From the NCBI GenBank assembly GCA_963833985.1, contig CAWIAD010000002.1:6048001-6112000 (forward strand): 64,000 bases of DNA. The letters run 5' to 3'. The notes beneath the pieces were generated by a model. That model was not told the DNA's origin. It searched no databases and saw only the letters and a list, made by a program, of their open reading frames with translations. Shown here piece after piece: positions 15,491 through 28,802 of this stretch. Numbering within the stretch: position 1 is the first letter of the stretch; every line of letters begins with the position of its first letter. The DNA is from an uncultured Planctomycetaceae bacterium. Its GTDB lineage: Bacteria; Planctomycetota; Planctomycetia; Isosphaerales; Isosphaeraceae. Made by a program: the position numbers and the translations under genes.

Positions 15491-15919
15491 TCAGTCGAGC
15501 CAGTTCTCGACTCGCAAGCCTGGCACTCTCTCGAAATCGGCTCGGTTGGCGGACAGGAGAAGTGCGTGGTTGACCAGAGCCGTCGCCGCGATTCAGAGAT
15601 CCCTTGAGTCGATGCGAAGCTTCTGCGGGCGGAGATCATCAAATCGTCGGGCCGCTGCCTCATCGAACGGCACAATTTCGAACTCTTGGTAAAACTCGAA
15701 CAGCAAGGCCAGCTCGCGATAACCGGCGACTAGCCGAAGCGCCGTTTTCTCCTTGGCGATCACGGCCAGCCAGCCGCGCATCCGTTCCTCGACCGTGACA
15801 ATGGCCACACCTATGACTTCGGATGCCGGGACTGAATTGAGTCGATCGATCATTCGACGGCCGCGTTCACTGTCGGGGTATTTCAGGAACGTCGTATGGT
15901 CCGTGTCAAGGAGGATCAT
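15491..15919 (-). pseudogene. vapC: VapC (PIN) toxin interrupted by an in-frame TGA at 15593-15595
   Basis: MILLDTDH...VTVEERMRGWL...IVPFDEAAA...RDL*IAATALVNHALLLSANRADFERVPGLRVENWLD*. The canonical VapC C-terminus continues in frame after the stop. Confidence 0.85.
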
Positions 15920-16128
15920 TCGGCCAACTTTCCGCCCCGCGCCGCCTCCCGTTCGGCCTCACGGACGCGCATGCATTCCTCGTCGACCCTGCGCATGAAT
16001 TCGCTGTCGCGGAACATGCCGACCACATTGCGCCAATCTTTGCGGGAGCGGTCGACTTCCTTCGTCGCAATGACCTTCTCCAAGGCCTCGACTCGTTTGG
16101 CGAGGGATTCCAAGGTCAAGTCACTCAT
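15916..16128 (-). CDS. Probable antitoxin of the VapC pair
   Basis: 70 aa (MSDLTLESLAKRVEALEK...KDWRNVVGMF), GGAGGAG RBS, 4-bp overlap with the vapC start. Confidence 0.75.
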   Translation of the reverse strand: MSDLTLESLAKRVEALEKVIATKEVDRSRKDWRNVVGMFRDSEFMRRVDEECMRVREAEREAARGGKLAE

Positions 16129-16708
16129 TGCGTCTCCTCCAGACACTCAAACAGCCCCCCACAATCCTACTTTGCCAGGCTCACTTCTTGGAATGCGTCT
16201 TGGTGTGACTCCTCGCGCCTCCGATCCGGGTCCCGAGACTCAGCCGCTGCGCAGCAGGACGATGATGGCGTCCTTGACCGAAGGCGTCAGGCGGTGACGG
16301 TTCGCGACAAACTCCCGTAGTGCCGCGTCTTCGCGGACAGTGAGCAGTCAGCAGGGCGGACAGTTGACTCAACGACTATGATGCAAAACGACTTGTCAAA
16401 CGGCGACTTCGGCAGCAATTCCGGTGTCACTGAGCCGGTGAGGGGGGCTCCACGGCGGTGGACGGAAGAGAGAGTCAAGGGGTTGGATTGACGGACCAAG
16501 TGACGGGGACGCCCTTGCGCCTCGTCGTCCCGTTGGTGCCTCTTCGGCTGCGGTTTGTTTCGCAGGAACATTTCACGATTGAACGCTCTCGCATTCTGAA
16601 TTCTGGCTCGTGAGGGACCGGCCGAGAAGTGGCATAGCATCCGGTTGACCAGCTGCTTGATTCTCAAGCCTCCAGCCAGTCTCGTGGGCCGTCTGCCGAT
16701 CGTTCGTT

Positions 16709-16969: not shown

Positions 16970-17992
16970 TTAGGGACGAAGACCGGAGTCGTTCTCAACG
17001 CCAAGCCGGTCCCACACATGAATCATCTGTGCTTGTTCAGCCGAAAGCCAATCAGCGACATCGTGTCCGTGACTCCTGCCACTACGATCCCAAATCCAGT
17101 AGGCATGAAGACCGATTGTATCCTCTGTTGGCAGAACCCTGTCGAGCCCCCAGGTGGAGAACAGCTTCCTTGAGCCCCGGTAGAGCCACGAGCACATGTC
17201 GGCCATGCTGCCACTGGTCTCGTTGGTGGCGAGTGCATCCGCGTAATGCAGGAGAGCAGCGTAGTCGGCATCCAGTTTCGTGTTGCGGAACTCTTTCCCC
17301 GGCGTGTCTTTCTCCCCGTACTTCAGCATGAACACGCACCAAAGGGCGAGGCTGCTCCGAGCGTGGTGGAAGGCGAACCATTCGGGGCCGAGTCCGTCCT
17401 CGGCCCCCTTGATGTACACGTCACTCGCTTCTTGGCGTCCATGCGCCAGTTGAATCCAGCGCTTTACCATCCGCTCTTGGTTTACCAGATCATCCATCTG
17501 GGGGCCGAGATTTTTCCCTTGACCCAGTTCCCGGCGAATCTGCCCGTAGGGGACGGAGCAGATTTCGCAGAACGTGCGGCACAAATGGACGAGTGCTTCA
17601 ACGGAATCCACCTCCCGTTGCTGGTAAGCGGGCCTCGTCAAAGACCGCAACTCGTCCGGTGCCTGCTCGCTGCGCTTGCCGAACCAGTACCTTGTCCGTT
17701 CGGTGAGAGACTTGTCGAAAGGCCCTCCCACGGGGGCTTTTGCCGTAAGCTCCTCTTTCAGCAATTCCCCGGTGTGCCGCCAGACCTCGATGGCATCGGC
17801 GAATTCCCACAGCTTGCGTTGAGCCTCGCTCCAGAGAGTGTCTCGGCTCCCGGTGCAGAGTTCGTAAACCAAGGTGTCCGTCAGGACGAAGGTGCAGCCG
17901 CACATGCGCAGCGCACGCAGCCTGCGGCACGACCTGCTTTCGGCTTGCAGGAAGCTCTTGTCGAGAATCACCTTGCGGCTGGTTTCGGCCAT
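16970..17992 (-). CDS. Hypothetical protein: PIN-like nuclease fold with a C-terminal DUF2934-like domain
   Basis: KVILDKSFL...FVLTDTLVYEL...LDADYAALLHYADALATNE acidic pattern; C-terminal EDTIGLHAYWIWDRSGRSHGHDVADWLSAE matches the DUF2934 pattern (AY..W...G...G....DW..AE). Confidence 0.6.
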   Translation of the reverse strand: MAETSRKVILDKSFLQAESRSCRRLRALRMCGCTFVLTDTLVYELCTGSRDTLWSEAQRKLWEFADAIEVWRHTGELLKEELTAKAPVGGPFDKSLTERTRYWFGKRSEQAPDELRSLTRPAYQQREVDSVEALVHLCRTFCEICSVPYGQIRRELGQGKNLGPQMDDLVNQERMVKRWIQLAHGRQEASDVYIKGAEDGLGPEWFAFHHARSSLALWCVFMLKYGEKDTPGKEFRNTKLDADYAALLHYADALATNETSGSMADMCSWLYRGSRKLFSTWGLDRVLPTEDTIGLHAYWIWDRSGRSHGHDVADWLSAEQAQMIHVWDRLGVENDSGLRP

Positions 17993-18108: not shown

Positions 18109-18441
18109 CTACTGGCCCTCGCTTTCGAGGAATGCCAGCACTCGGTCCAAACGCCGATCGTCCAGGTTGGCCATCTTGCGAAACACGTCGGGGCGCTGGA
18201 GGATGCGGTGACGGATGGCGTCGGGGATTTTTTCGGCGAGGAGCAGCAGCTCGTCGGGGTCCGCGTCCAGGGCGGTGGCCAGCTTGACAATCAGCTCGTT
18301 GCTGGGGAATTCGCCGAACGAGAGCTTCTGGTTCTCGATCTTGCTGAGGTAGGTAAACGTAACCCGCACCTTCTTCGCAACGTCCCGAAGGGTCAGATTC
18401 TTCGCCTGCCGTAGCTCGCGAATCCGCGTGCCGAAGATCAT
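18109..18441 (-). CDS. XRE-family HTH transcriptional regulator
   Basis: FGTRIRELRQAKNLTLRDVAKKVRVTFTYLSKIEN; AGGAGG RBS. Confidence 0.9.
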   Translation of the reverse strand: MIFGTRIRELRQAKNLTLRDVAKKVRVTFTYLSKIENQKLSFGEFPSNELIVKLATALDADPDELLLLAEKIPDAIRHRILQRPDVFRKMANLDDRRLDRVLAFLESEGQ

Positions 18442-18721: not shown

Positions 18722-20686
18722 ATGGGCGGCAAACTCCTCAAGACATTTTTGTCGACTGCGGTTTTAGTGTTCGTCTGCGGAACGCTCGTCGTGCTTTTGA
18801 CGCGAACGCCCACGGACGCCCGCAAAACCGGGGAGAAACCGAACGTCGCACCGGAGCCTACGCCAGTTACAGCCCCCGACCATATCCTACGTCTAACTGA
18901 AGCTGGCTGGGATCGCCGCGCCGCTGAGGCGGTCGTCGAGTTGAATAGGGAGTGGTTCACAATCCAGGCAGAAGAAAACGCTGCTGGTCTGGAACTTCAG
19001 CTTAAGCTACTGGACGGTTTAGGTCAGTATCCGACGCTGGCTCGCTTCATTTCACAGCATCCAGAAACAGCGGGGCTGCTGGCCGCTGCTGACGATCCTG
19101 AACTGATCGCAGCGGGACTTGATTCCGCCAACGAGAATTACGAGATCGTTGCCGGACTCTACGTGCAACACGCTGCGCCATCTGACGCTGTAGAGGTTGC
19201 CGAGGCGCTGAAGGCGAATAGTGAGCTGATTTGCACACTGCGCAGGCGGGGTCTGCTCGGTTGCGAAGTGCTGTTCATCTTTGACCGAAAGGACGTGGCT
19301 GCCGGGGAATACGAGACATGGCTTCGCGAGGTGATCCAAGCCAAATCCGCAGCATCCGACACTGAATTCGCGTCGTTCGTCAACCTTGCTATGCGCCACG
19401 GCCCTGCTCTCCGCGAACGGTTGAAGAAGAGTGCGAACTTCCGTCGCCACTTCCGGAATGAACTGTGGCCTCGACTGTCCCGAGTAGTCGAAGGCGAGCA
19501 AGGGATGTTCGAGCACTACCTCGACAAGGAACGCATCTGGGATTTGCTTGACCTCGAAAACGGGGAAGAGTTGCTGAAGCGATGTGGACTTCTGCCGATC
19601 GACCTACTCTATGGCTATCCGGAGATTGACCACCCGCCGTACCCGAAAACCCTGCATGACAAGATCGTGCAAGTGCTCCTGCGACGTGAGGACCGCACGA
19701 TTCATGCCCTCATGAAATTCCGCCGCGAGCCGCTGTTCCACAAGTTCATGCAGCGTGACCTATCGTCCGACACTTTTTCGGCTGCGCTGACACAGCTATT
19801 CAATGCCGGGCCGAATTCGCCCGACAAGCTGGCACTCTACGCGAGACTCGACGATACAGCCCTAGCAGATGAAGTCGGCCCGCCGACTTCAGGAATCGTC
19901 ACTTGGATACCGTTCTACTACACGGTCTACGAGGTCCCCAAAAAGCTGCTGCAGGGAAGAGACCCGACCGGTCTGGACTTGTTCTCGGCCGCGGTCGATC
20001 CCGTGTTCCTTGTGATCGACGTGTTTACGGGCGGGGGTACCGCGGCCGGCCGCAAAGCGCTGCTTGTTGGCGGTAAGGAAGCCACGGGTGCAGCGACTCG
20101 CAAGCTCGCGGAGAAGAGTGGAGAAAAGCTGCTTGTCACGACGCTGCGAGATACTGGCCTGGAACTCGCCCGCAAACAAGTCGGTAAAGAGGTCGCCGAA
20201 AAGATGGGTGAGAAAGAACTGATTAACTGGACGGTCACCGGAACGATGTCAGAGATGCAACAGGCGTTACGGACCACGATTGGCAAGGCGACGACGTTCG
20301 AGATTACCAGGCCCGTTCAATTTATGTTTCAGTACAGTCGAGTGGGCCGAGAAACTTGGAGACGCTTCACCGGAATGGAAGCAAGGCTTTTCATGCGAGG
20401 CGACGCTAAGGTTTATGTCCGGATCTCAAATCTGGCCGGGGCAGTCGTTGGAAGCCGCGGCGCCGCTTTTTTCGAGCGTACGGCACAGGATCTCGCTCTT
20501 GGCTCAGCGTTCGAAAGCAAACCCGGGAAAGATGTCCTGCATGAGGGTGTCAAACGTGTCATCTCAACCAAAGAGCAATTGCGATCATGGCAGCAGAACG
20601 CGTCGGCTTGGTGGCTTCTTAACGCAAGCCACAGTACCGCTCAAGCTGAACGGGAAGAGTTGCCACGACAAGGAGCGCAACAATGA
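18722..20686 (+). CDS. Operon gene A: hypothetical N-anchored membrane protein (654 aa)
   Basis: Long intact ORF in lower-GC DNA; N-terminal TM FLSTAVLVFVCGTLVVLL; stop overlaps the next ATG (ATGA). Confidence 0.85.
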   Translation: MGGKLLKTFLSTAVLVFVCGTLVVLLTRTPTDARKTGEKPNVAPEPTPVTAPDHILRLTEAGWDRRAAEAVVELNREWFTIQAEENAAGLELQLKLLDGLGQYPTLARFISQHPETAGLLAAADDPELIAAGLDSANENYEIVAGLYVQHAAPSDAVEVAEALKANSELICTLRRRGLLGCEVLFIFDRKDVAAGEYETWLREVIQAKSAASDTEFASFVNLAMRHGPALRERLKKSANFRRHFRNELWPRLSRVVEGEQGMFEHYLDKERIWDLLDLENGEELLKRCGLLPIDLLYGYPEIDHPPYPKTLHDKIVQVLLRREDRTIHALMKFRREPLFHKFMQRDLSSDTFSAALTQLFNAGPNSPDKLALYARLDDTALADEVGPPTSGIVTWIPFYYTVYEVPKKLLQGRDPTGLDLFSAAVDPVFLVIDVFTGGGTAAGRKALLVGGKEATGAATRKLAEKSGEKLLVTTLRDTGLELARKQVGKEVAEKMGEKELINWTVTGTMSEMQQALRTTIGKATTFEITRPVQFMFQYSRVGRETWRRFTGMEARLFMRGDAKVYVRISNLAGAVVGSRGAAFFERTAQDLALGSAFESKPGKDVLHEGVKRVISTKEQLRSWQQNASAWWLLNASHSTAQAEREELPRQGAQQ

Positions 20687-21732
20687 TCGTGAACTTTTAT
20701 CTGATGAATTCAATAAGCCGATTCCCTAAGACGGTCTACTGCCCAATTGTCGCAATCCTGCTCTCACTTGTCATTTCGTCGCAGGTGCTTGCTCAAGGCG
20801 TGCGGGGCGTCATGGACGACCTCGTGCGCGGCACAGCCCGAGTCGCAGATGACATCCCCGTGAAACGAATCGATGATCTCGTCGCAGAACTATCAAAGTC
20901 TCGCGCCGCACGCGAGGCGATTGATACCGAATTGCGAAAAGCGGGGCGGCTCACTGGAACCGGAGACGCCGTTCGTGGCACGGCCAGGTCTGACGAAGTG
21001 CTGCGGTTGCTGCGATCTGCAACGTCGGAGCTGGACCCGAATGTGATACGTCGCATCGAACAACTCGATGACGCTTCACGCGATGTGGCACTCGTACTTG
21101 CCAGGGGTGGCGAAGAATTCACGCGGACGCTCCCAGATCTCGCGACACGGGGCCGACTCTTGCGCGAAGGAGGTGCGGAAACAGTAGGGGCAGTGGGGAT
21201 GTTCGGCCCCGACGCCGCGCGAGCGGCATTGCGGTTGGACGAGGCTATCCGTGGCGGGTCAATCATCGTTAAGGATGGAACTCGCGCTGTCACCCTCGCA
21301 GACTTCGGGAACGTGATGACACGATCAGGCAACGCTTCGTGGCAATTCTGGAAGGAATTCGTTCAACCCCACTGGAAGATCTGGGCGGCCAGTGGCGCAC
21401 TGGCTGCTTATCTCGCGAATCCAGAGTACTTTCAAGACGCCGCCGGCCAACTTACAGAGGCCGGCTTCAAACATCTGACAGAGTTTGCCGGTGAGGTGGC
21501 GGCTGCGGCGATCCGTGGCGTCGGCCAGGGATCGGGAAACGCTGCAGAGAAGGTCACCAGCGCGGCGCAAGACACTTTCCTTCATGGAGACAAGTGGGCC
21601 TACGCAGTCGTCGGAACTCTAGTCTTTCTCGGTGGCGTTTCGCTGCTCTTTCGACGCGTGCGGTATTGGTTGTTCCGGCCCCTCCGCTGGTTGAACCAGA
21701 AGCCTGCGGATTCAAACACATCCAAAACGTGA
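20683..21732 (+). CDS. Operon gene B: hypothetical exported/membrane protein (349 aa)
   Basis: Signal-like IVAILLSLVISSQVLAQG; C-terminal TM WAYAVVGTLVFLGGVSLLF followed by a basic tail. Confidence 0.85.
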   Translation: MIVNFYLMNSISRFPKTVYCPIVAILLSLVISSQVLAQGVRGVMDDLVRGTARVADDIPVKRIDDLVAELSKSRAAREAIDTELRKAGRLTGTGDAVRGTARSDEVLRLLRSATSELDPNVIRRIEQLDDASRDVALVLARGGEEFTRTLPDLATRGRLLREGGAETVGAVGMFGPDAARAALRLDEAIRGGSIIVKDGTRAVTLADFGNVMTRSGNASWQFWKEFVQPHWKIWAASGALAAYLANPEYFQDAAGQLTEAGFKHLTEFAGEVAAAAIRGVGQGSGNAAEKVTSAAQDTFLHGDKWAYAVVGTLVFLGGVSLLFRRVRYWLFRPLRWLNQKPADSNTSKT

Positions 21733-21746
21733 TTTGGGAGATTGAT

Positions 21747-24335
21747 TTGACTGCAGATGTAGATTCTCCTGAACAGGTCTATCGCCTCGCGCTGTATGGT
21801 GTCCGGGCATCCGGAAAGACTTGCATACTGTCTGCACTCTCGCTGCCTCGCGTCGCTAACCCCAAAGGATTCTCGTGCTCCTGGATTGAGCAAGTTCCAG
21901 GGCATGCGTTCCCAACGGGTGACCCGACCACATGGACGACTGATGACCCGTTCCACGCCGGCTGGAAATGGCTCAACGAGCAACGGTGTCGCCTCAAGCG
22001 CGGCGAAATTCCTGCTCCAAACCCAAACCGCGAAGAGCCAATGCGGTTTCTGTTCGATTTCGGGTCACGCGACCACGGAACACGGCATATCGAACTGATC
22101 GATTATTCTGGGGAACTTGTCACCGCTTCTGCCAGTGAATTGGCCGCGAAGCTGCGTGACCACATGCAAGTCTGTGACGGACTCCTCGTCTTAGCGGAAG
22201 TGCCGTACCCTGGCAGAGATCACGCACCACTTGCTGACGATCTGGAGAAACTCAAGGGCGCGTTCTTATTGCTGCTGAACGGGCGTGACACCAGCCCAAG
22301 GCAAGACTGGCCGATCGCACTGCTCTTCAACAAGTGGGACCGTCGTGCCGATGCGGATTGCGACAGGCACGCCGAAGACCAGCAATTGATCGAAGAATTT
22401 CTCAATCAATCCCCTCCACCGCCGCAGTCGTCACTGATCGACACGATTACGAATGCCGTCAGTGACGATAATACTCGCTGCTTCCCAGTGAGCGCATTCG
22501 GCGCACACGAGATTCGAGGCGATGGACAAGAGGTTCCTCGACTCAATGGAACATCGCTGAAGTCACGAGGACTTGAGGACGGATTCGTTTGGGTCGCCGA
22601 TCGCTGTGATACAATCCGAGTGGAACGTCTCGAGGATGCTGCCAACGATACTTCCTGGTGGGCTTTCCCTCAGATCGTCTTCGGAAGGAAAGCCACAGCC
22701 GTTCGAACACTCGCATCCTCGTGGACCATGTGGTTTTGCGGTGTATCTGCGGCGTCCGCAATCTCAGCCGCCTGGCAACTTCGTCGACGTTTCCCGAAGA
22801 AAAGTCCTCTCCGCACTCGAACCATCGGAGCTTTGCGCAAGCTGTGGTGGAAATTCATCAGCCAGGTGGCCGTCTGCTTAATCGTACTGCTGGCGATTTT
22901 CTTCGGCATCGAGACCACTCTCGATGAAATCAATTATCGCGGCATTCTCGCAACTCGGGATGATCCGAGCGCAGAGGCCAAGCAACTGCAGCTTGGTGAA
23001 ACTTGGCTTGAGCACTATTTCGTCTCGCCGAGTTATCGACATTGGCTTTCATGCCAAACGATTCTTGACCGTTCGGATGCCCATAGTCTGCTCGTGCGAT
23101 TTCGAACACGGCGCGACGAAACTCTCTGGATGTCGGTTACCAATGCCGAGAATCCACACACACGACTGATCCTTGCCCGCAAGTACCTTGATGCGTTCCC
23201 GGCGGGATTGCACCAATCTGAAGCCCAGACAGTTGTCGCGGACGCTGATCGGCAGGAGATGCAGCACAAGAACGAAGAGTACCTGGCACAAATTGCGCTG
23301 AAGATCGACGCCATTTCGGCGAACGCAAATACACAGCTTGATGTCCTTCACAGTCTGAACGAGCAAGTGGGAACAATTCCACATCCCGAAGCGTCATCGA
23401 CATCGATTGAAACGCGCCAGGACGAGTTGAGAGGGCGCATTGCCCAGAAACAGACGGAAGTGGCCGAAGCCGTCAGACAAGCCGGCTGGGAGAAGTTCAA
23501 GCAGAGTTACTTCTCACTGATGCAGAACAAAAGTGTCGGCGATGCGGCGAGAGAGCTTGGATCTCGTGTTCCAAAGGACGCCGACTTACAGCTTCTCGTT
23601 GCGGACTTTACAAAACAAGCCCCGGCGATCATTCACGGGAAGGTGCAGGACGCACTAAAAAATCGCTCTTGGCAGATCGCCCGTGATTCTGCTCGATTGA
23701 TCACCAACCCGAATGTGGTGAAGCTACTTCCGGCGTCTTCCATCAAGGATCTTCAAAAGCTCGGAGAAGAGATTGACATCGCTGAAGATCGTGACCTTTA
23801 TGCTCAGATCAGGCGATACAAGCCGCAGTGCGGAGACCAGATTGATGCGTACCTCTCGCGAGCCCCTTTGAAGGCGATGAAAGTCGAAGTTGAGAAGTAC
23901 CGCCATTATGTTAATGCAATGAAAGAGCCCTTGGATCTGACACTCAGCCTGACCGCAATCCAATGGCACGACAAGTACTGGGCATGGCGCGTCAACTACT
24001 ACAATGACGTGACGGTTCAAGTCAGAGGAAAGCCATCGATCACGGCAACACGCGTACTGAGCAAGCCAAACACCCGAAGCGCCGATCTTGGCGATGGAAA
24101 GATAAATGCAGGCTTTAATGAGACCATTACCATCGATGTCTCAGTCGTGGCGAAATATGGATGGGTGGGCACGTCAACGATGTCCGGCGGTTCTGGAAGC
24201 TGGTCAGGCACCACAAATCAGCTTCGATCAGGAGTCACAATCGACCTCAACGGAGACGGATTCACGAACAAGGCCACGTTTTCGCTGACGGGGATTCCGC
24301 CCGAGCCACCACTGCCAGACTGGAAGATGCGATGA
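21747..24335 (+). CDS. Operon gene C: TRAFAC-class P-loop GTPase with a TM helix and a large C-terminal region
   Basis: G1 LYGVRASGKT, G3 LIDYSGE, G4 LLFNKWD, G5 FPVSAFG; TM QVAVCLIVLLAIFFGI. Probable TTG start at 21747 after GGGAG. Confidence 0.85.
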   Translation: MTADVDSPEQVYRLALYGVRASGKTCILSALSLPRVANPKGFSCSWIEQVPGHAFPTGDPTTWTTDDPFHAGWKWLNEQRCRLKRGEIPAPNPNREEPMRFLFDFGSRDHGTRHIELIDYSGELVTASASELAAKLRDHMQVCDGLLVLAEVPYPGRDHAPLADDLEKLKGAFLLLLNGRDTSPRQDWPIALLFNKWDRRADADCDRHAEDQQLIEEFLNQSPPPPQSSLIDTITNAVSDDNTRCFPVSAFGAHEIRGDGQEVPRLNGTSLKSRGLEDGFVWVADRCDTIRVERLEDAANDTSWWAFPQIVFGRKATAVRTLASSWTMWFCGVSAASAISAAWQLRRRFPKKSPLRTRTIGALRKLWWKFISQVAVCLIVLLAIFFGIETTLDEINYRGILATRDDPSAEAKQLQLGETWLEHYFVSPSYRHWLSCQTILDRSDAHSLLVRFRTRRDETLWMSVTNAENPHTRLILARKYLDAFPAGLHQSEAQTVVADADRQEMQHKNEEYLAQIALKIDAISANANTQLDVLHSLNEQVGTIPHPEASSTSIETRQDELRGRIAQKQTEVAEAVRQAGWEKFKQSYFSLMQNKSVGDAARELGSRVPKDADLQLLVADFTKQAPAIIHGKVQDALKNRSWQIARDSARLITNPNVVKLLPASSIKDLQKLGEEIDIAEDRDLYAQIRRYKPQCGDQIDAYLSRAPLKAMKVEVEKYRHYVNAMKEPLDLTLSLTAIQWHDKYWAWRVNYYNDVTVQVRGKPSITATRVLSKPNTRSADLGDGKINAGFNETITIDVSVVAKYGWVGTSTMSGGSGSWSGTTNQLRSGVTIDLNGDGFTNKATFSLTGIPPEPPLPDWKMR

Positions 24336-25876
24336 ACGGCCTTGCGCTCTTCGCTGAAACACCGCGGGCCGGGGAGTTGGGCCACCGCTTTCTTGTGCCC
24401 TTCAATCTTTCAGTTTCGGAGTCAGAGGTTGCCGAGTTCGTTCAAGTCGCTGACAGTGACCTTTCAGTTGGCGAGAACTTTGTTGCCATTGGGCGCAAGG
24501 TTCCCCAGCGTAGCGCCGCAGGCGCAATTCGAGAAGGCCGTGAGGTCGTGGTCTTGGCGGGCATCGATGTGACACGTGTCTCCGCGCACGACTTGGCCCG
24601 GATCGTGATGTCTCTTCAAGAGTGCCTGGACAAACTTGATCAACTCGTGAGCGGCGGACTCGACTGGAATTCCATTACAGCGGGGGAAGTGATAGTCCGG
24701 CGGAAGGAGTTGCGAGATTGGCTGGACGTTCTATCGACCGTTCCTATCTCAGTAACCGAATGGCGTAATGGCCCTCGCCACCTAAGCACCATGAGGGCGA
24801 CGCCTTCACAGCAACTGCACGCCCCCATTTTCATGGTAAAGTGGCGCACGAGCCTCCTGGCGTTGTTGGCGTTCGCATTGGGAATTGCTGGAGGCGTTTC
24901 CTTCGTTAAGTTCCACTTTCTTGGCAATGCGTTGACTCAACGTGACCAGACAACCACAAACGACGATATCGCCTCACCTTCAGACGAACCCAAGCGACGT
25001 CCAAAGTCGGCCCCGGGATCCACCGTTCCAATAAGTCGTCCAGGCGGCGTGTCTGTGGACAATGCTGATGTACTTCGAAAAGCAGTTCAGACCGGTAAGG
25101 TCGATGCACTCGTGGACATTCTCACTTTGCTGCCCAGCAATGGCAGCATCGCGGCGGAGGATTTCCACGCCTTGATCGAGTTTTCCACAGGGCTCGTGGA
25201 AAAGAGTCGTTTCGACGATGGCGTGCGGATCGTCACACAGCTAATCAGGCTTCAGGGCGCACAGTCGCTCGACCAGTCAGCGGTCGCTCGGATAGAGGAT
25301 TTGCAGAGGAAGGCAAGTGAGGGGTGCGAGTCGATCAACCAACAAGACCGCCGTCTGTATGAGTCTGTGCGTGAATCCACGGACGAGCAGCAAGTTGGCG
25401 CTGCACGGCGCTATCTCGAACGCGGACCACGGCAGTCCATGTCTCAGCCTGTCAAACGCTGGATCGAGTGGGCAGAAAAGACAGTTGATGCTGAGGTGGT
25501 CCGTGTAGACCTGCAAACAGACGTACCATTGACAATCAAGTTTGCGGCCAACAAGCGAGAGATCGGCTATAGACTGGAATCTGTTGACGTCATTGCGAAT
25601 TCGCGCCCGTTGGCATTTGTTATGACGCACATTGGAATTACGCGACAACGACTGCCGGCTTCCGTTCAGGTCATAGTCGAGGCTGATAACGCCGCTCACC
25701 TGCGAGCGCCCTCGCGTTTCGTGGGCGATTTTCAAATAGGGACACGGTCGAAAGGTGTCACTCAAGTATTGTTGCAATCGGCCGGAGTACCACGACAAAC
25801 GGGGGCGATTAGCATTCGATTTCCATTACTTCAAGACACTCCCGAACTGCCCGAATGGAAAGAGGTCTTGCCATGA
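24332..25876 (+). CDS. Operon gene D: hypothetical single-pass membrane protein
   Basis: ATG 24332 overlaps the gene C stop (ATGA); begins MNGLALFAETPRAGELGHRFL; TM SLLALLAFALGIAGGVSFV. Confidence 0.85.
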   Translation: MNGLALFAETPRAGELGHRFLVPFNLSVSESEVAEFVQVADSDLSVGENFVAIGRKVPQRSAAGAIREGREVVVLAGIDVTRVSAHDLARIVMSLQECLDKLDQLVSGGLDWNSITAGEVIVRRKELRDWLDVLSTVPISVTEWRNGPRHLSTMRATPSQQLHAPIFMVKWRTSLLALLAFALGIAGGVSFVKFHFLGNALTQRDQTTTNDDIASPSDEPKRRPKSAPGSTVPISRPGGVSVDNADVLRKAVQTGKVDALVDILTLLPSNGSIAAEDFHALIEFSTGLVEKSRFDDGVRIVTQLIRLQGAQSLDQSAVARIEDLQRKASEGCESINQQDRRLYESVRESTDEQQVGAARRYLERGPRQSMSQPVKRWIEWAEKTVDAEVVRVDLQTDVPLTIKFAANKREIGYRLESVDVIANSRPLAFVMTHIGITRQRLPASVQVIVEADNAAHLRAPSRFVGDFQIGTRSKGVTQVLLQSAGVPRQTGAISIRFPLLQDTPELPEWKEVLP

Positions 25877-27243
25877 CCGGGCTGGGCCTGATTGTCGAGA
25901 CGCCTCGCGGTGGGAATGCTGGGCATCGCTTCCTGACTTCCCGAAGCAACGCGGGTGAAAAAGAAGTCGCCAGCGCAGCGGCCTCCGCAAGTCAATCTGC
26001 GGTTGGGCGAGCGTATATCTCCGTTTCACGGCAGGTCATTCAGCGGCTTCAAAATGGCTCGGTTCGTGAAGGTGCCGAACGGATGATATTGCATGGTCTC
26101 GACGTTGACCAACTTCAGCCCGAGCAGATCGAACAGGTCAAAATAGAGTTGACCACGCTTCTCCTATCGCTCGACAGCCTAATTCAGTCAATCGAATGGC
26201 CGTCTGATAGCCAGTCAACTGTGATCTTTCGCGAAGAGCTACGGCAGTGGGTTGACCGCGAAGTGTTTCGACATTTGCCCCGCTCGCGCTTGACTGCTTC
26301 CAGTGGCGTCCAAGATTCTGTGCCGCCCTCTCGATCCCAGTGGAAATGGTTAATCATCGGCACCTGCACTCTGGCCAGTATTATAGTGCTTTCGTTGTTT
26401 CTTGGGCGTCACGGTGGCAAATCTGAAATCGGGACTAACCAGAAGCTGTCCCCCCCATTGATCCATAACGAATCGAGAGTTCGGGAATTGGCAAGCGAGT
26501 GGCAATGTACTCCCGAAGAGGCCCTGAGTTCACTGATGCGTGCGAGCAACTGGGACCGGCGACGAGAAGCTGACAGCCTGACCTTATCAGCCGGAATGAC
26601 CGACGGTGAGATTCTTGAAATCCTCAACAAGGTCGAAGCAAGCAAGGGTTCGGATCGGTTTTGCGTCTCGCCAAGCATTGAAGGCGTTGTTGATTTCCGC
26701 CGGTTTGTAGAGGAGAGTACCTCGCTATCTGCTGAAAAAATGAGACACCGCCGTAACTGGCTATATTCTACTTGGATGCAGTTTACAGTTCTTAAGCAGG
26801 CTGCTGAAAAAGTCCATGACGCTCTGATTCAAGTGGGGACTGAGGACGCGTTCTCGCGAATGCTCGTCTCCGTTGCGGAAGTCCAAACAGAAGTTGGCCT
26901 AGGGGATACTTTTCAGAAGCCGGTGACGCCGTTGCTTGAAAGGCAAGACTTGATGATCTTCCGACTGCTGGACGACGTGCGACAGAAATGTGCTGCAGCC
27001 GGGTTCGATCAGTTCGGCACCGAAGGAAGGGGCGGCATGGCCGCCGCAGGCGAGTTAGTGACGTTTGTTGCGGAGTTGCGAGTGCATCATGAATCGGTGC
27101 GTAACGCGCTTAGAATGAGTCGCGCGAGACTCACAGATTCAATTCGCGACAAGCAAGGTGCGAACAACGCGAGCGCGGTGTTTGAAGCTTACAAGTCTTT
27201 CGAGGAGTTCCTTGAGCAGCTTTTGAAGAATCCGAATCCTTAG
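25873..27243 (+). CDS. Operon gene E: hypothetical single-pass membrane protein, N-terminus paralogous to gene D
   Basis: ATG 25873 overlaps the gene D stop (ATGA); begins MTGLGLIVETPRGGNAGHRFL; TM WLIIGTCTLASIIVLSLFLG. Confidence 0.85.
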   Translation: MTGLGLIVETPRGGNAGHRFLTSRSNAGEKEVASAAASASQSAVGRAYISVSRQVIQRLQNGSVREGAERMILHGLDVDQLQPEQIEQVKIELTTLLLSLDSLIQSIEWPSDSQSTVIFREELRQWVDREVFRHLPRSRLTASSGVQDSVPPSRSQWKWLIIGTCTLASIIVLSLFLGRHGGKSEIGTNQKLSPPLIHNESRVRELASEWQCTPEEALSSLMRASNWDRRREADSLTLSAGMTDGEILEILNKVEASKGSDRFCVSPSIEGVVDFRRFVEESTSLSAEKMRHRRNWLYSTWMQFTVLKQAAEKVHDALIQVGTEDAFSRMLVSVAEVQTEVGLGDTFQKPVTPLLERQDLMIFRLLDDVRQKCAAAGFDQFGTEGRGGMAAAGELVTFVAELRVHHESVRNALRMSRARLTDSIRDKQGANNASAVFEAYKSFEEFLEQLLKNPNP

Positions 27244-27873: not shown

Positions 27874-28500
27874 TTACGGCAAGCTCGGCTCGCGATCTTG
27901 CCGTTGGCGTTCCATCGCAATTCGCTCCTGAAACGTCATCGGCTGCCCAGCAGTTAAATCATCCCCGGCTGCCGGCGGCGGCTGGAGAACTGATGGTTCC
28001 GGCGAAACATCGCCTTCGACAGGGTGATCCGATGCGAAATTCGCTTCCTGCCGCTTGCGTATGCGAGCGGTGATCGGTTCCTCGGCCGTTGCTTGCTTCG
28101 ACTGAACTCGCTGTGGCGTGGCTTCTATTGTGTTGGCGGCTTTCAGTGCCTTGACCCTCTCGGCCAGTTCCGAAACGGTCGGACCGTCTTCGTTGCTTGC
28201 TTCATGAGCCGTGGCGGATAGACCGGCCTTGAGCTGGTCGCGCAGGCTGGTGAATTCGGATAGGTAGGCGTCGTGTGCGAATGGCTTGCCCAAACGCTCG
28301 CGGTAATCACGCAGCTGCGATTCGGCGATGGCCAGGTCCTGCCGGACGCGCACTCACTCGGAGCCGTAGCCAGTGACCAGGCGTTCGAGGGCGTTCAGCA
28401 CGGCACGCGGCCCCTGGTGGTCGCGCGACAGCGTGGACAGGCGTGTGATCGCGCCTTCCAGAAACACGTCCGGCGGGAATTTGCGGGTGCAGGATCAGGT
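27874..28500 (-). pseudogene. C-terminal relic of a large mobile-element DNA methylase/SNF2-helicase (DarB-like) gene
   Basis: LILHPQ/FPPDVFLEGAITRLSTLSRDHQGPRAVLNALERL...SE*VRVRQDLAIAESQLRDYRERLGKPFAHDAYL has a frameshift, an in-frame TGA (28354-28356) and no 5' part. The family call is from recall of the KPF..E.EL-type tail. Confidence 0.5.
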
Positions 28501-28666
28501 CAATGCAACGGAACGGGTTGTACACCGAATGGCGAAACGGAGGACGGGACTTGAACTGCCTAATGTCTGATCATGAAGCCAATTACGTCAAATCATGCGA
28601 AATCGTGAAGCATCCCCGAGGACCATTGAACTCGATGATCGAGTCGCAAGTCTCGTCTGAACGGGG

Positions 28667-28703
28667 AGAAAGCCCTTCGACGTACTCGTCGAAGGGCGTT
28701 TTC
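28667..28703 (-). terminator. Intrinsic terminator-like hairpin downstream of tRNA-Ser
   Basis: Perfect 11-bp stem GCCCTTCGACG / CGTCGAAGGGC (28672-28697) with a 4-nt loop and short T runs on both strands. Confidence 0.7.
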
Positions 28704-28713
28704 TAAAAACAAG

Positions 28714-28802
28714 CGGAGAGGGTGGGATTCGAACCCACGTCGCAGCTTTCGCCACGAACGGCATTTCCAGTGCCGCACCTTCGGCCTCTCGGTCACCTCT
28801 CC
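28714..28802 (-). tRNA. tRNA-Ser(GGA)
   Basis: GGAGAGG acceptor stem, anticodon arm CGGCA-CTGGAAA-TGCCG, long variable arm, GGTTCGAATCC T-loop, discriminator G. CCA is not encoded. Confidence 0.97.

Follow-up and report, generated by a model that had tools for sequence, protein, structure and literature searches.

A 64,000-nucleotide window of the genome of an uncultured Planctomycetaceae bacterium (positions 6,048,001 to 6,112,000 of contig CAWIAD010000002.1, assembly GCA_963833985.1; coordinates below are those of the window) contains a set of five genes, designated A to E, that is centred on a putative membrane-anchored GTPase. The five open reading frames (ORFs) occupy positions 18722-27243 of the forward strand and are free of internal stops. 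ATGA overlaps join A to B at 20683, C to D at 24332 and D to E at 25873, and B and C are spaced by 14 nucleotides, the start of C being a TTG codon preceded by GGGAG. The GC content of the genes is 0.54-0.59 (0.57-0.63 at third codon positions), compared with 0.65 for both contigs of the genome, and they lie in a stretch from about 16 to 29 kb with a GC content of 0.53-0.59, the rest of the window ranging from about 0.58 to 0.69 and mostly from 0.61 to 0.68. All five proteins contain one or more hydrophobic segments. An initial annotation of this DNA had described the intact co-oriented ORFs, their overlaps, the lower GC content, the hydrophobic segments and the GTPase motifs of C, all of which were recovered here. 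A scan for promoters and terminators gave nothing informative.

Protein A (654 amino acids, 18722..20686) comprises an N-terminal membrane anchor, a helical region, a hydrophobic hairpin and a C-terminal alpha/beta region, and B (349 amino acids, 20683..21732) a signal-like N-terminus, a Gly/Ala-rich helical body, a C-terminal membrane helix and a basic tail. The core of the system is C (862 amino acids, 21747..24335), a membrane-anchored DO-GTPase-related protein. It is followed by D (514 amino acids, 24332..25876), in which a 140-residue N-domain and a membrane helix precede a variable outer part with a C-like helical module, and by the D paralogue E (456 amino acids, 25873..27243), which shares the N-domain, likewise has a membrane helix and ends in an outer part that is unrelated. 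Scans of Pfam, PADLOC and NCBIfam returned no significant match for any of the five, and no family of PADLOC-DB 2.0.0 reached E ≤1 with any of them. Neither a second GTPase nor GAP1 was found in the window.

The GTPase domain of C (residues ~11-301, 21777..22649) carries the motifs GVRASGKT, DYSGE, NKWD and VSAFG; G1, G3, G4 and G5 are conserved over 72 relatives, D-Y-x-G-E being kept in 67 and the G4 motif [NT]KWD in 65. An AlphaFold2 model of C built with 80 sequences (predicted local distance difference test score (pLDDT) 85, predicted template-modelling score (pTM) 0.51) consists of a small-GTPase-fold domain, a long helix that includes the transmembrane segment, a helical rod and a terminal beta-sandwich. 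The transmembrane helix (370-388, 22854..22910) is evident from both hydropathy and the model; the predicted periplasmic rod (391-726, 22917..23924) contains two similar helical modules (451-505 and 672-728), to which residues 336-381 of D are related (E 3.5e-8). The C-terminal beta-sandwich (727-849, 23925..24293) has a predicted C2-domain fold, aligning with C2 domains over 108-119 residues at Z 10.3-11.7 and a root-mean-square deviation (rmsd) of 2.6-3.8, with matches to 3w56 (Z 10.6, rmsd 2.6, 108 aligned), myoferlin C2A (Z 10.7) and the Itch C2 domain (Z 10.3). Because the GTPase domain would be cytoplasmic and is followed by a single transmembrane helix, the rod and C2 tip are probably periplasmic; the cytoplasmic switch with periplasmic arms envisaged in the initial annotation is supported by this predicted topology. 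In one homologue of C (P0030) the GTPase match is missing its first 200 residues and TrkA-N and TrkA-C Pfam marks are present, as if the cytoplasmic switch had been swapped for an RCK module.

The best structural match of the GTPase domain is YcjX (6NZ4/6NZ5/6NZ6), at Z 13.7-14.1 over ~245 aligned residues with an rmsd of 4.3-4.5 (for 6nz4, Z 13.7, rmsd 4.4 and 249 aligned). YcjX differs from C in that the two GTPase domains are 14% identical, Arf-like GTPases score within ~1 Z, and the rod and C2 tip have no counterpart in it. Weak matches to DUF463 occur in 4 of the 72 C relatives, and no YcjF-like family was found among the partner proteins or the 111 scanned neighbours, which are a subset of 201 listed flanking ORFs plus four that were added. 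Dynamin, atlastin and GBP-like proteins gave only partial Foldseek matches (query TM-score 0.15-0.18), and VIA ranks YcjX and Arf-like domains above them.

The gene set recurs in distant bacteria. Among 7,994 scored candidates, 140 homologues of C were found at E ≤0.001, mostly full length, with 440 cluster representatives for this protein, and a profile scan of GTDB genomes yielded 76 related loci, the record titles of which name Planctomycetota, Thermodesulfobacteriota/Deltaproteobacteria, Beggiatoa-related sulfur bacteria, Competibacteraceae, Chromatiales and Verrucomicrobiota. Where sufficient flanking DNA was available, A lies upstream of C in 45 of 65 loci and a protein of the D/E type lies downstream in 45 of 60; B is present in 12 of the 76. 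The 56 loci flanked on both sides include 28 with the order A-C-D/E, 8 with A-B-C-D/E, 7 with C-D/E, 2 with A-C and 11 with C alone. Since this gene order is seen across phyla, the arrangement is not due to chance, and the fixed unit of the window-type set is A-C-D/E, with B optional. The proposal of a conserved multi-gene membrane module is therefore upheld by the 36 of 56 well-flanked loci in which A, C and D/E occur together in the order A-(B)-C-D/E. The stricter proposal of a five-gene A-B-C-D-E unit holds for the A-C-D/E order and fails for B and for the doubled D/E, since two D/E domains occur at one locus alone among the 76 (L001), a rarity explained by D and E being paralogues. Immediately downstream of that locus, which carries the closest five-gene operon, lie two tandem MMR_HSR1/dynamin-like GTPase genes (L001:14892-18520).

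In 55 genomes from a family of Beggiatoa relatives (that of G371), C was detected in 27. The 20 genomes with D/E all have C as well, as do 18 of the 20 with A; the 55 genomes are mutual kin and contributed to the profiles, and no statistic is attached to the co-occurrence. Strong matches to window-type C are found in only 4 of 121 genomes, namely this genome and 120 of its family, and the nearest neighbours of the window C in the tree belong to other planctomycete families. The few strong matches within the family, the low GC content, these tree neighbours and the multiple copies (up to 5 matches per genome) together suggest that the operon is mobile. Viral contigs gave 97 pattern matches, none of them a relative of C. 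Six solo C genes in Thioploca/Thiomargarita genomes (L014, L025, L031, L039, L054, L055) occupy a conserved site by a trigger-factor gene cluster, which suggests a second domestication of C, here without A or D/E.

D and E are paralogous through their common conserved N-terminal domain of 140 residues, which is followed by a hydrophobic helix in 47 of the 48 proteins that carry it. The outer parts are hypervariable: 43 of them, each at least 60 residues long, fall into 26 unrelated clusters. Among eight D/E proteins of the Beggiatoa family (28 pairs) median identity is 64% in the N-domain and 20% past the membrane helix, as against 45% for the C-terminal 130 residues of C at the same eight loci. 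A C2 profile made from C did not match D, and the positive-inside counts of the window D and E are ambiguous (1/1 and 2/3). At five Beggiatoa-family loci (L013, L015, L018, L019, L027) D/E is followed by a second transmembrane protein that resembles the D/E outer part and lacks most of the N-domain, and also by a conserved 180-residue ORF without a Pfam match.

Protein A, for which 78 homologues were found, has a predicted periplasmic all-helical region (~51-385), a hydrophobic hairpin (~392-445) and a conserved alpha/beta C-terminus; its model (pLDDT 78) shows the anchor, the helical body, a poorly modelled hairpin and the C-terminal alpha/beta region. In this element (19895..20056) an amphipathic helix leads through a conserved GR turn into a hydrophobic segment, after which comes a stretch rich in Gly and Lys. 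The hairpin is kept in 76 of the 78 homologues, with a best 17-residue hydropathy of at least 1.5 in 53 of the 76, and is a candidate membrane-inserting element. Searches with the whole 654-residue chain, which single domains could escape, gave no meaningful fold match (Foldseek best E 7e-3, TAL repeats; VIA best Z 5.8, designed repeats). A similar helix-turn-hydrophobic appearance is found in the hairpins of PT-TG (PF14449) and SseC (PF04888), both below the level of evidence: PT-TG was the top Atlas match of the hairpin at 0.82, under the Atlas evidence level, and one distant A homologue matches SseC weakly (E 5e-4), leads that hint at insertion into a membrane. Unlike those proteins, A is membrane-anchored and its C-terminus is conserved rather than variable. 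Gene fusions tie the parts of the system together: B precedes the GTPase as an N-terminal fusion in P0099, the body of A stands behind a Ser/Thr kinase and a transmembrane helix at 7 loci, and a kinase is fused to the GTPase in P0094, P0221 and L022.

The nearest described relatives are the DO-GTPase systems, which Kaur, Burroughs, Iyer & Aravind (2020; PMC7159879) proposed as conflict systems and in which a DO-GTPase and GAP1, a core pair described as not being exchanged, are accompanied by GASH or FNIII proteins. C shares with them the TRAFAC GTPase with a Glu after the Walker B Gly, and the systems have in common membrane-associated parts, a partner directly downstream and kinase neighbours, the described systems being themselves predictions; in some described members, as in C, the GTPase is followed by a transmembrane helix and an outer beta-sandwich (PMC7159879). 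A linked variable component is a further likeness, to be compared with the D/E outer parts, in which no enzymatic family was recognised. Weak matches (E ≤0.05, best 1e-8) link C relatives to DO-GTPase1 (45 of 72) and DO-GTPase2 (40 of 72), the window C itself matching neither profile, and PF19993/PF19975 marks were found on 4 of 120 homologues among the matches listed. The window operon differs from the described systems in having a single GTPase without an N-terminal zinc ribbon and without a detected GAP1, FNIII or GASH: two GAP1-N profiles found GAP1 at none of the 76 loci, and neither GASH nor FNIII was found in the five proteins or the scanned neighbours.

The position of GAP1 is filled by D/E, whereas the DO-GTPase-GAP1 core is held by Kaur et al. 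to be unexchanged (PMC7159879). D/E is shorter than GAP1 and has its transmembrane helix at the expected position of GAP1-M. When the D/E N-domain was compared with GAP1-N, the first strand and the glycine loop lined up, in a match (hhalign E 0.04, 21 columns) that is weak and at the level of shuffled controls, 10 of 40 of which equalled it, the positive control giving E 1e-4. Pfam recognised GAP1 in none of 52 D/E proteins, and Atlas yielded no usable match for the N-domain. The consulted passages of Kaur et al. mention neither A nor B, nor a helical rod or C2 tip, and the term 'C2 domain' has 0 occurrences (PMC7159879); nor did the module appear among the papers listed on YcjX/YcjF, on TssM/TagF/DENN or on C2-domain GTPases in planctomycetes. 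Kinship to the DO-GTPases in the absence of GAP1 and of any match to a named system, as first noted from the sequence, agrees with these profile comparisons and scans, and PADLOC likewise did not map the operon onto a named defence system. We judge the gene set to be a real, cross-phylum and apparently undescribed DO-GTPase branch that would work in the manner of those systems while lying outside both described subtypes; its novelty relative to Kaur et al. is judged from the consulted passages, and Figure 1-source data 1 of that paper may already list some of its neighbourhoods (PMC7159879).

The branch is less isolated than had been supposed. The same genome carries a second, distant operon, A'-B'-C' (L077, G000:C2:2881756-2888006), at host GC content. 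C' scores 47.4 bits against DO-GTPase2 (PF19993; cut-off 27), and a profile comparison of C with C' gives 99.3% probability over 240 columns. C' was matched in 116 of the 121 genomes of the family set, and elsewhere only by five weak partial matches in 250 other genomes of the phylum. Of 21 C' loci, 19 have B', 13 have A' and 14 have a GAP1-like gene after C'; 13 of these genes were scanned, 7 of them giving a weak match to GAP1-N2 and 4 a weak match to GAP1-M. In the present genome the GAP1-N2-like gene is unlinked to C' (C2:5223587-5224207). A sister branch that scores above the Pfam threshold for DO-GTPase2, in most cases with a GAP1-N2-like gene behind it, contradicts the claim of isolation from known systems, and its near-universal presence in the host family is not explained by a purely anti-phage function. 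In a quick tree, which holds 36 of the 72 window-type rows and from which 6 intended rows were dropped when their P-loop was missed by the pattern, window-type C (support 98) and C' (100) are separate from other DO-GTPases, the order among the groups not being resolved. The DO-GTPase2 cut-off is also exceeded at two more A-(B)-C modules (L212, L213) and at L214, a related GTPase locus, where yet other partners lie downstream. The differing partners of C', L212, L213 and L214 indicate that A-(B)-C is a stable unit whose partner is exchangeable or has diverged past detection. The partners at L212:7139-8458, L213:9135-10160 and L214:6573-8279, which lie behind long DO-GTPases and look unrelated, resemble GAP1-N and D/E at their start, where a short hydrophobic strand is joined by an aromatic-glycine loop; no profile gave a significant link. 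A third, short pair of DO-GTPase2 and GAP1-N2 genes, both above the Pfam cut-offs, lies at G000:C2:4376309-4377613 (L170, L209), near chemotaxis-like genes in which CheA-like and response-regulator ORFs were read by eye.

We tentatively favour, at somewhat less than even confidence, the view that the operon is a GTP-gated envelope surveillance switch of the conflict type with an output at the membrane; variability, patchy distribution and kinship to a predicted conflict class lead to this choice. The five proteins would assemble into one inner-membrane complex, in which a foreign or damaged envelope structure would be recognised by the variable, predicted periplasmic ends of D/E together with the helical body of A. 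The D/E N-domain, in the stead of GAP1, would set the nucleotide state of the C GTPase, and the rod and C2 tip of C would then move the A hairpin into the membrane. The outcome may be a breach or a sealing of the membrane or, in the kinase-fused variants, a response through an extracytoplasmic function (ECF) sigma factor.

Several observations weigh against a surveillance switch. Profile scans revealed no enzymatic effector domain in any part of the system. The model of A falls below pLDDT 50 at residues 427-468, in the hairpin zone, and A is moderately conserved along its whole length, unlike a polymorphic toxin; membership of A in PT-TG was rejected, as PF14449 matched 0 of 35 hairpin segments and the C-terminus is conserved. 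C stands alone at the 11 of 56 loci noted above, and 7 of the 27 C-bearing genomes of the G371 family have no detected A or D/E, although their assemblies may be incomplete. The C' GTPase is highly conserved and, being near-universal, resembles a housekeeping protein, and many loci are embedded among housekeeping genes. Specific defence or toxin-antitoxin neighbours were found by PADLOC at only ~5 of 29 loci (L018, L019, L027, L058, L059), in a count that omits generic kinase, methylase, ATPase and glycosidase matches and has no control set. GmrSD-like and HigBA-like genes sit inside the operon at L019 and L027.

The layout of C allows other uses of the same parts. One possibility, which we think rather unlikely, is an envelope tether or membrane contact site, in which C would reach across the periplasm to hold the outer membrane by means of the C2 domain at its end, the contact being stabilised or remodelled by A and B, and the GTPase would cycle attachment during budding, filament growth or shaping of the periplasm, the window copy being an acquired spare version. 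The rod-plus-C2 layout is that of eukaryotic tethers (Munc13, extended synaptotagmins, ferlins), in which a C2 fold likewise ends a long helical region, and Munc13 and extended synaptotagmin C2 domains are among the fold matches. The likeness is at the level of the fold (6-16% identity), and in C the predicted C2 domain would be joined to a GTPase across the membrane; the whole-chain match to Munc13 is poor (TM-score 0.10), and a C2 fold is by itself no proof of lipid binding. The near-universal C', the constant housekeeping surroundings of solo C in several Thioploca/Thiomargarita genomes and the listing of YcjX, the closest solved GTPase, as a stress protein all suit a tether, which would nevertheless leave unexplained the hypervariable D/E ends, the many paralogues per genome, the patchiness and the inserted defence genes. 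It is doubtful that the operon is a bacterial GTP-driven machine for membrane tethering or fusion, with a Munc13/synaptotagmin-like rod-plus-C2 arm across the inner membrane that draws a second membrane to the translocon-like hairpin of A and with D/E ends that act as allele-specific identity keys. If it were, it would be a kin-recognition or cell-cell exchange apparatus of aggregating or filamentous bacteria, domesticated as a core component in one planctomycete family and elsewhere still mobile.

Quite doubtful, too, is a conduit for cell-to-cell contact or export on the plan of TssM-TssL, in which C would be an energising scaffold, D/E would be TssL-like and A translocon-like, serving kin recognition or exchange among neighbouring cells in aggregates or filaments. 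TssM, a binding partner of TssL, carries Walker A, hhhhDxxG and (N/T)KxD motifs (PMC3346141). C shares its predicted layout, a cytoplasmic GTPase-like domain, an anchor and a large periplasmic part, next to a partner made of a cytoplasmic domain and a transmembrane segment. The C GTPase matches the TssM profile at 87% (E 4e-6), above 15 of 15 shuffled controls, yet over just 60 columns around G4; IcmF-related_N is matched weakly by 2 of the 72 C relatives, and TssM is absent from the listed fold matches of C, a list filled by GTPases. Truncation of four D/E homologues directly past the membrane helix, the SseC match of the distant A homologue and the inclusion among host genera of some scored as multicellular by Kaur et al. 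(PMC7159879) are consistent with a conduit. On the other side, the sequence kinship is marginal, the partners are unrelated by the tests run (D/E against TagF was not significant), the end of C is predicted to be C2-like, no family of the type VI secretion system (TssL, TssJ, baseplate, sheath) occurs in the five proteins or the scanned neighbours, and no outer-membrane channel gene is conserved across loci.

Improbable in our estimation is pure trans-envelope signalling, with A and D/E as receptors and C relaying to a Ser/Thr kinase and an ECF sigma factor without membrane damage. It draws on the kinase-TM-A and kinase-GTPase fusions, on the finding of the hairpin profile in only 1 of the 7 kinase-fused A proteins and on the many planctomycete loci that adjoin ECF sigma or kinase genes. 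Kinase and ECF sigma genes are abundant in planctomycetes; such neighbours are found mostly at planctomycete loci, in counts that carry no enrichment control, and the scanned flanking ORFs of the window include neither a kinase nor a sigma factor.

Whichever function applies, the operon offers a compact and intact 8.5-kb test case with a clear switch for a GTPase class known from genome prediction only, the paper of Kaur et al. (2020) being the sole one found on DO-GTPase/GAP1 and double-GTPase systems in planctomycetes. D/E is a candidate regulator standing in for GAP1, a partner supposed to be fixed, its outer domains form a natural allelic series, and C would connect a bacterial GTPase with a predicted C2 domain through the membrane. 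The presence of mobile and core versions in one genome allows the relation of a conflict-type to a housekeeping module to be asked directly.

A GTPase-then-adaptor order like that of C and D/E is also found in 10 gammaproteobacterial genomes (L218-L227, L243-L253), where TagF lies ~3 kb downstream of a TssM N-domain; no homology of TagF to D/E or to GAP1-N was detected. In the window itself, a gene of the XRE type with a helix-turn-helix motif (18109..18441, reverse strand) is divergent from the operon and may be its regulator, although it was not seen as a conserved neighbour at related loci. The initial annotation had placed the operon in a tRNA-Ser island. The GC dip, the tRNA-Ser(GGA) gene that forms the right border of the low-GC region (28713..28802, reverse strand) and the adjoining broken ORF bear this out in part; repeat searches of the window found no att repeat and no duplicated tRNA 3' end, and no integrase family occurs among the scanned flanking ORFs. 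The broken ORF (27874..28500, reverse strand) is interrupted by an in-frame stop, and its C-terminal peptide is present a second time in decayed form; the ORF lacks a significant Pfam match, and we take it to be a mobile-element remnant. The DNA past the 3' end of the tRNA gene (28502-28712) is 69% similar to the flank of a related tRNA-like sequence on the other contig (G000:C1:1366717-1366933). A 340-residue ORF at 16970-17992, in the same orientation as the XRE gene, has a C-terminal DUF2934 (E 2e-8) and an N-terminus that we take to be PIN-like. At the left edge of the low-GC region (15593-16130, reverse strand) lie two small overlapping ORFs, the second without a Pfam match, which by their motif resemble genes for an antitoxin and a PIN toxin.

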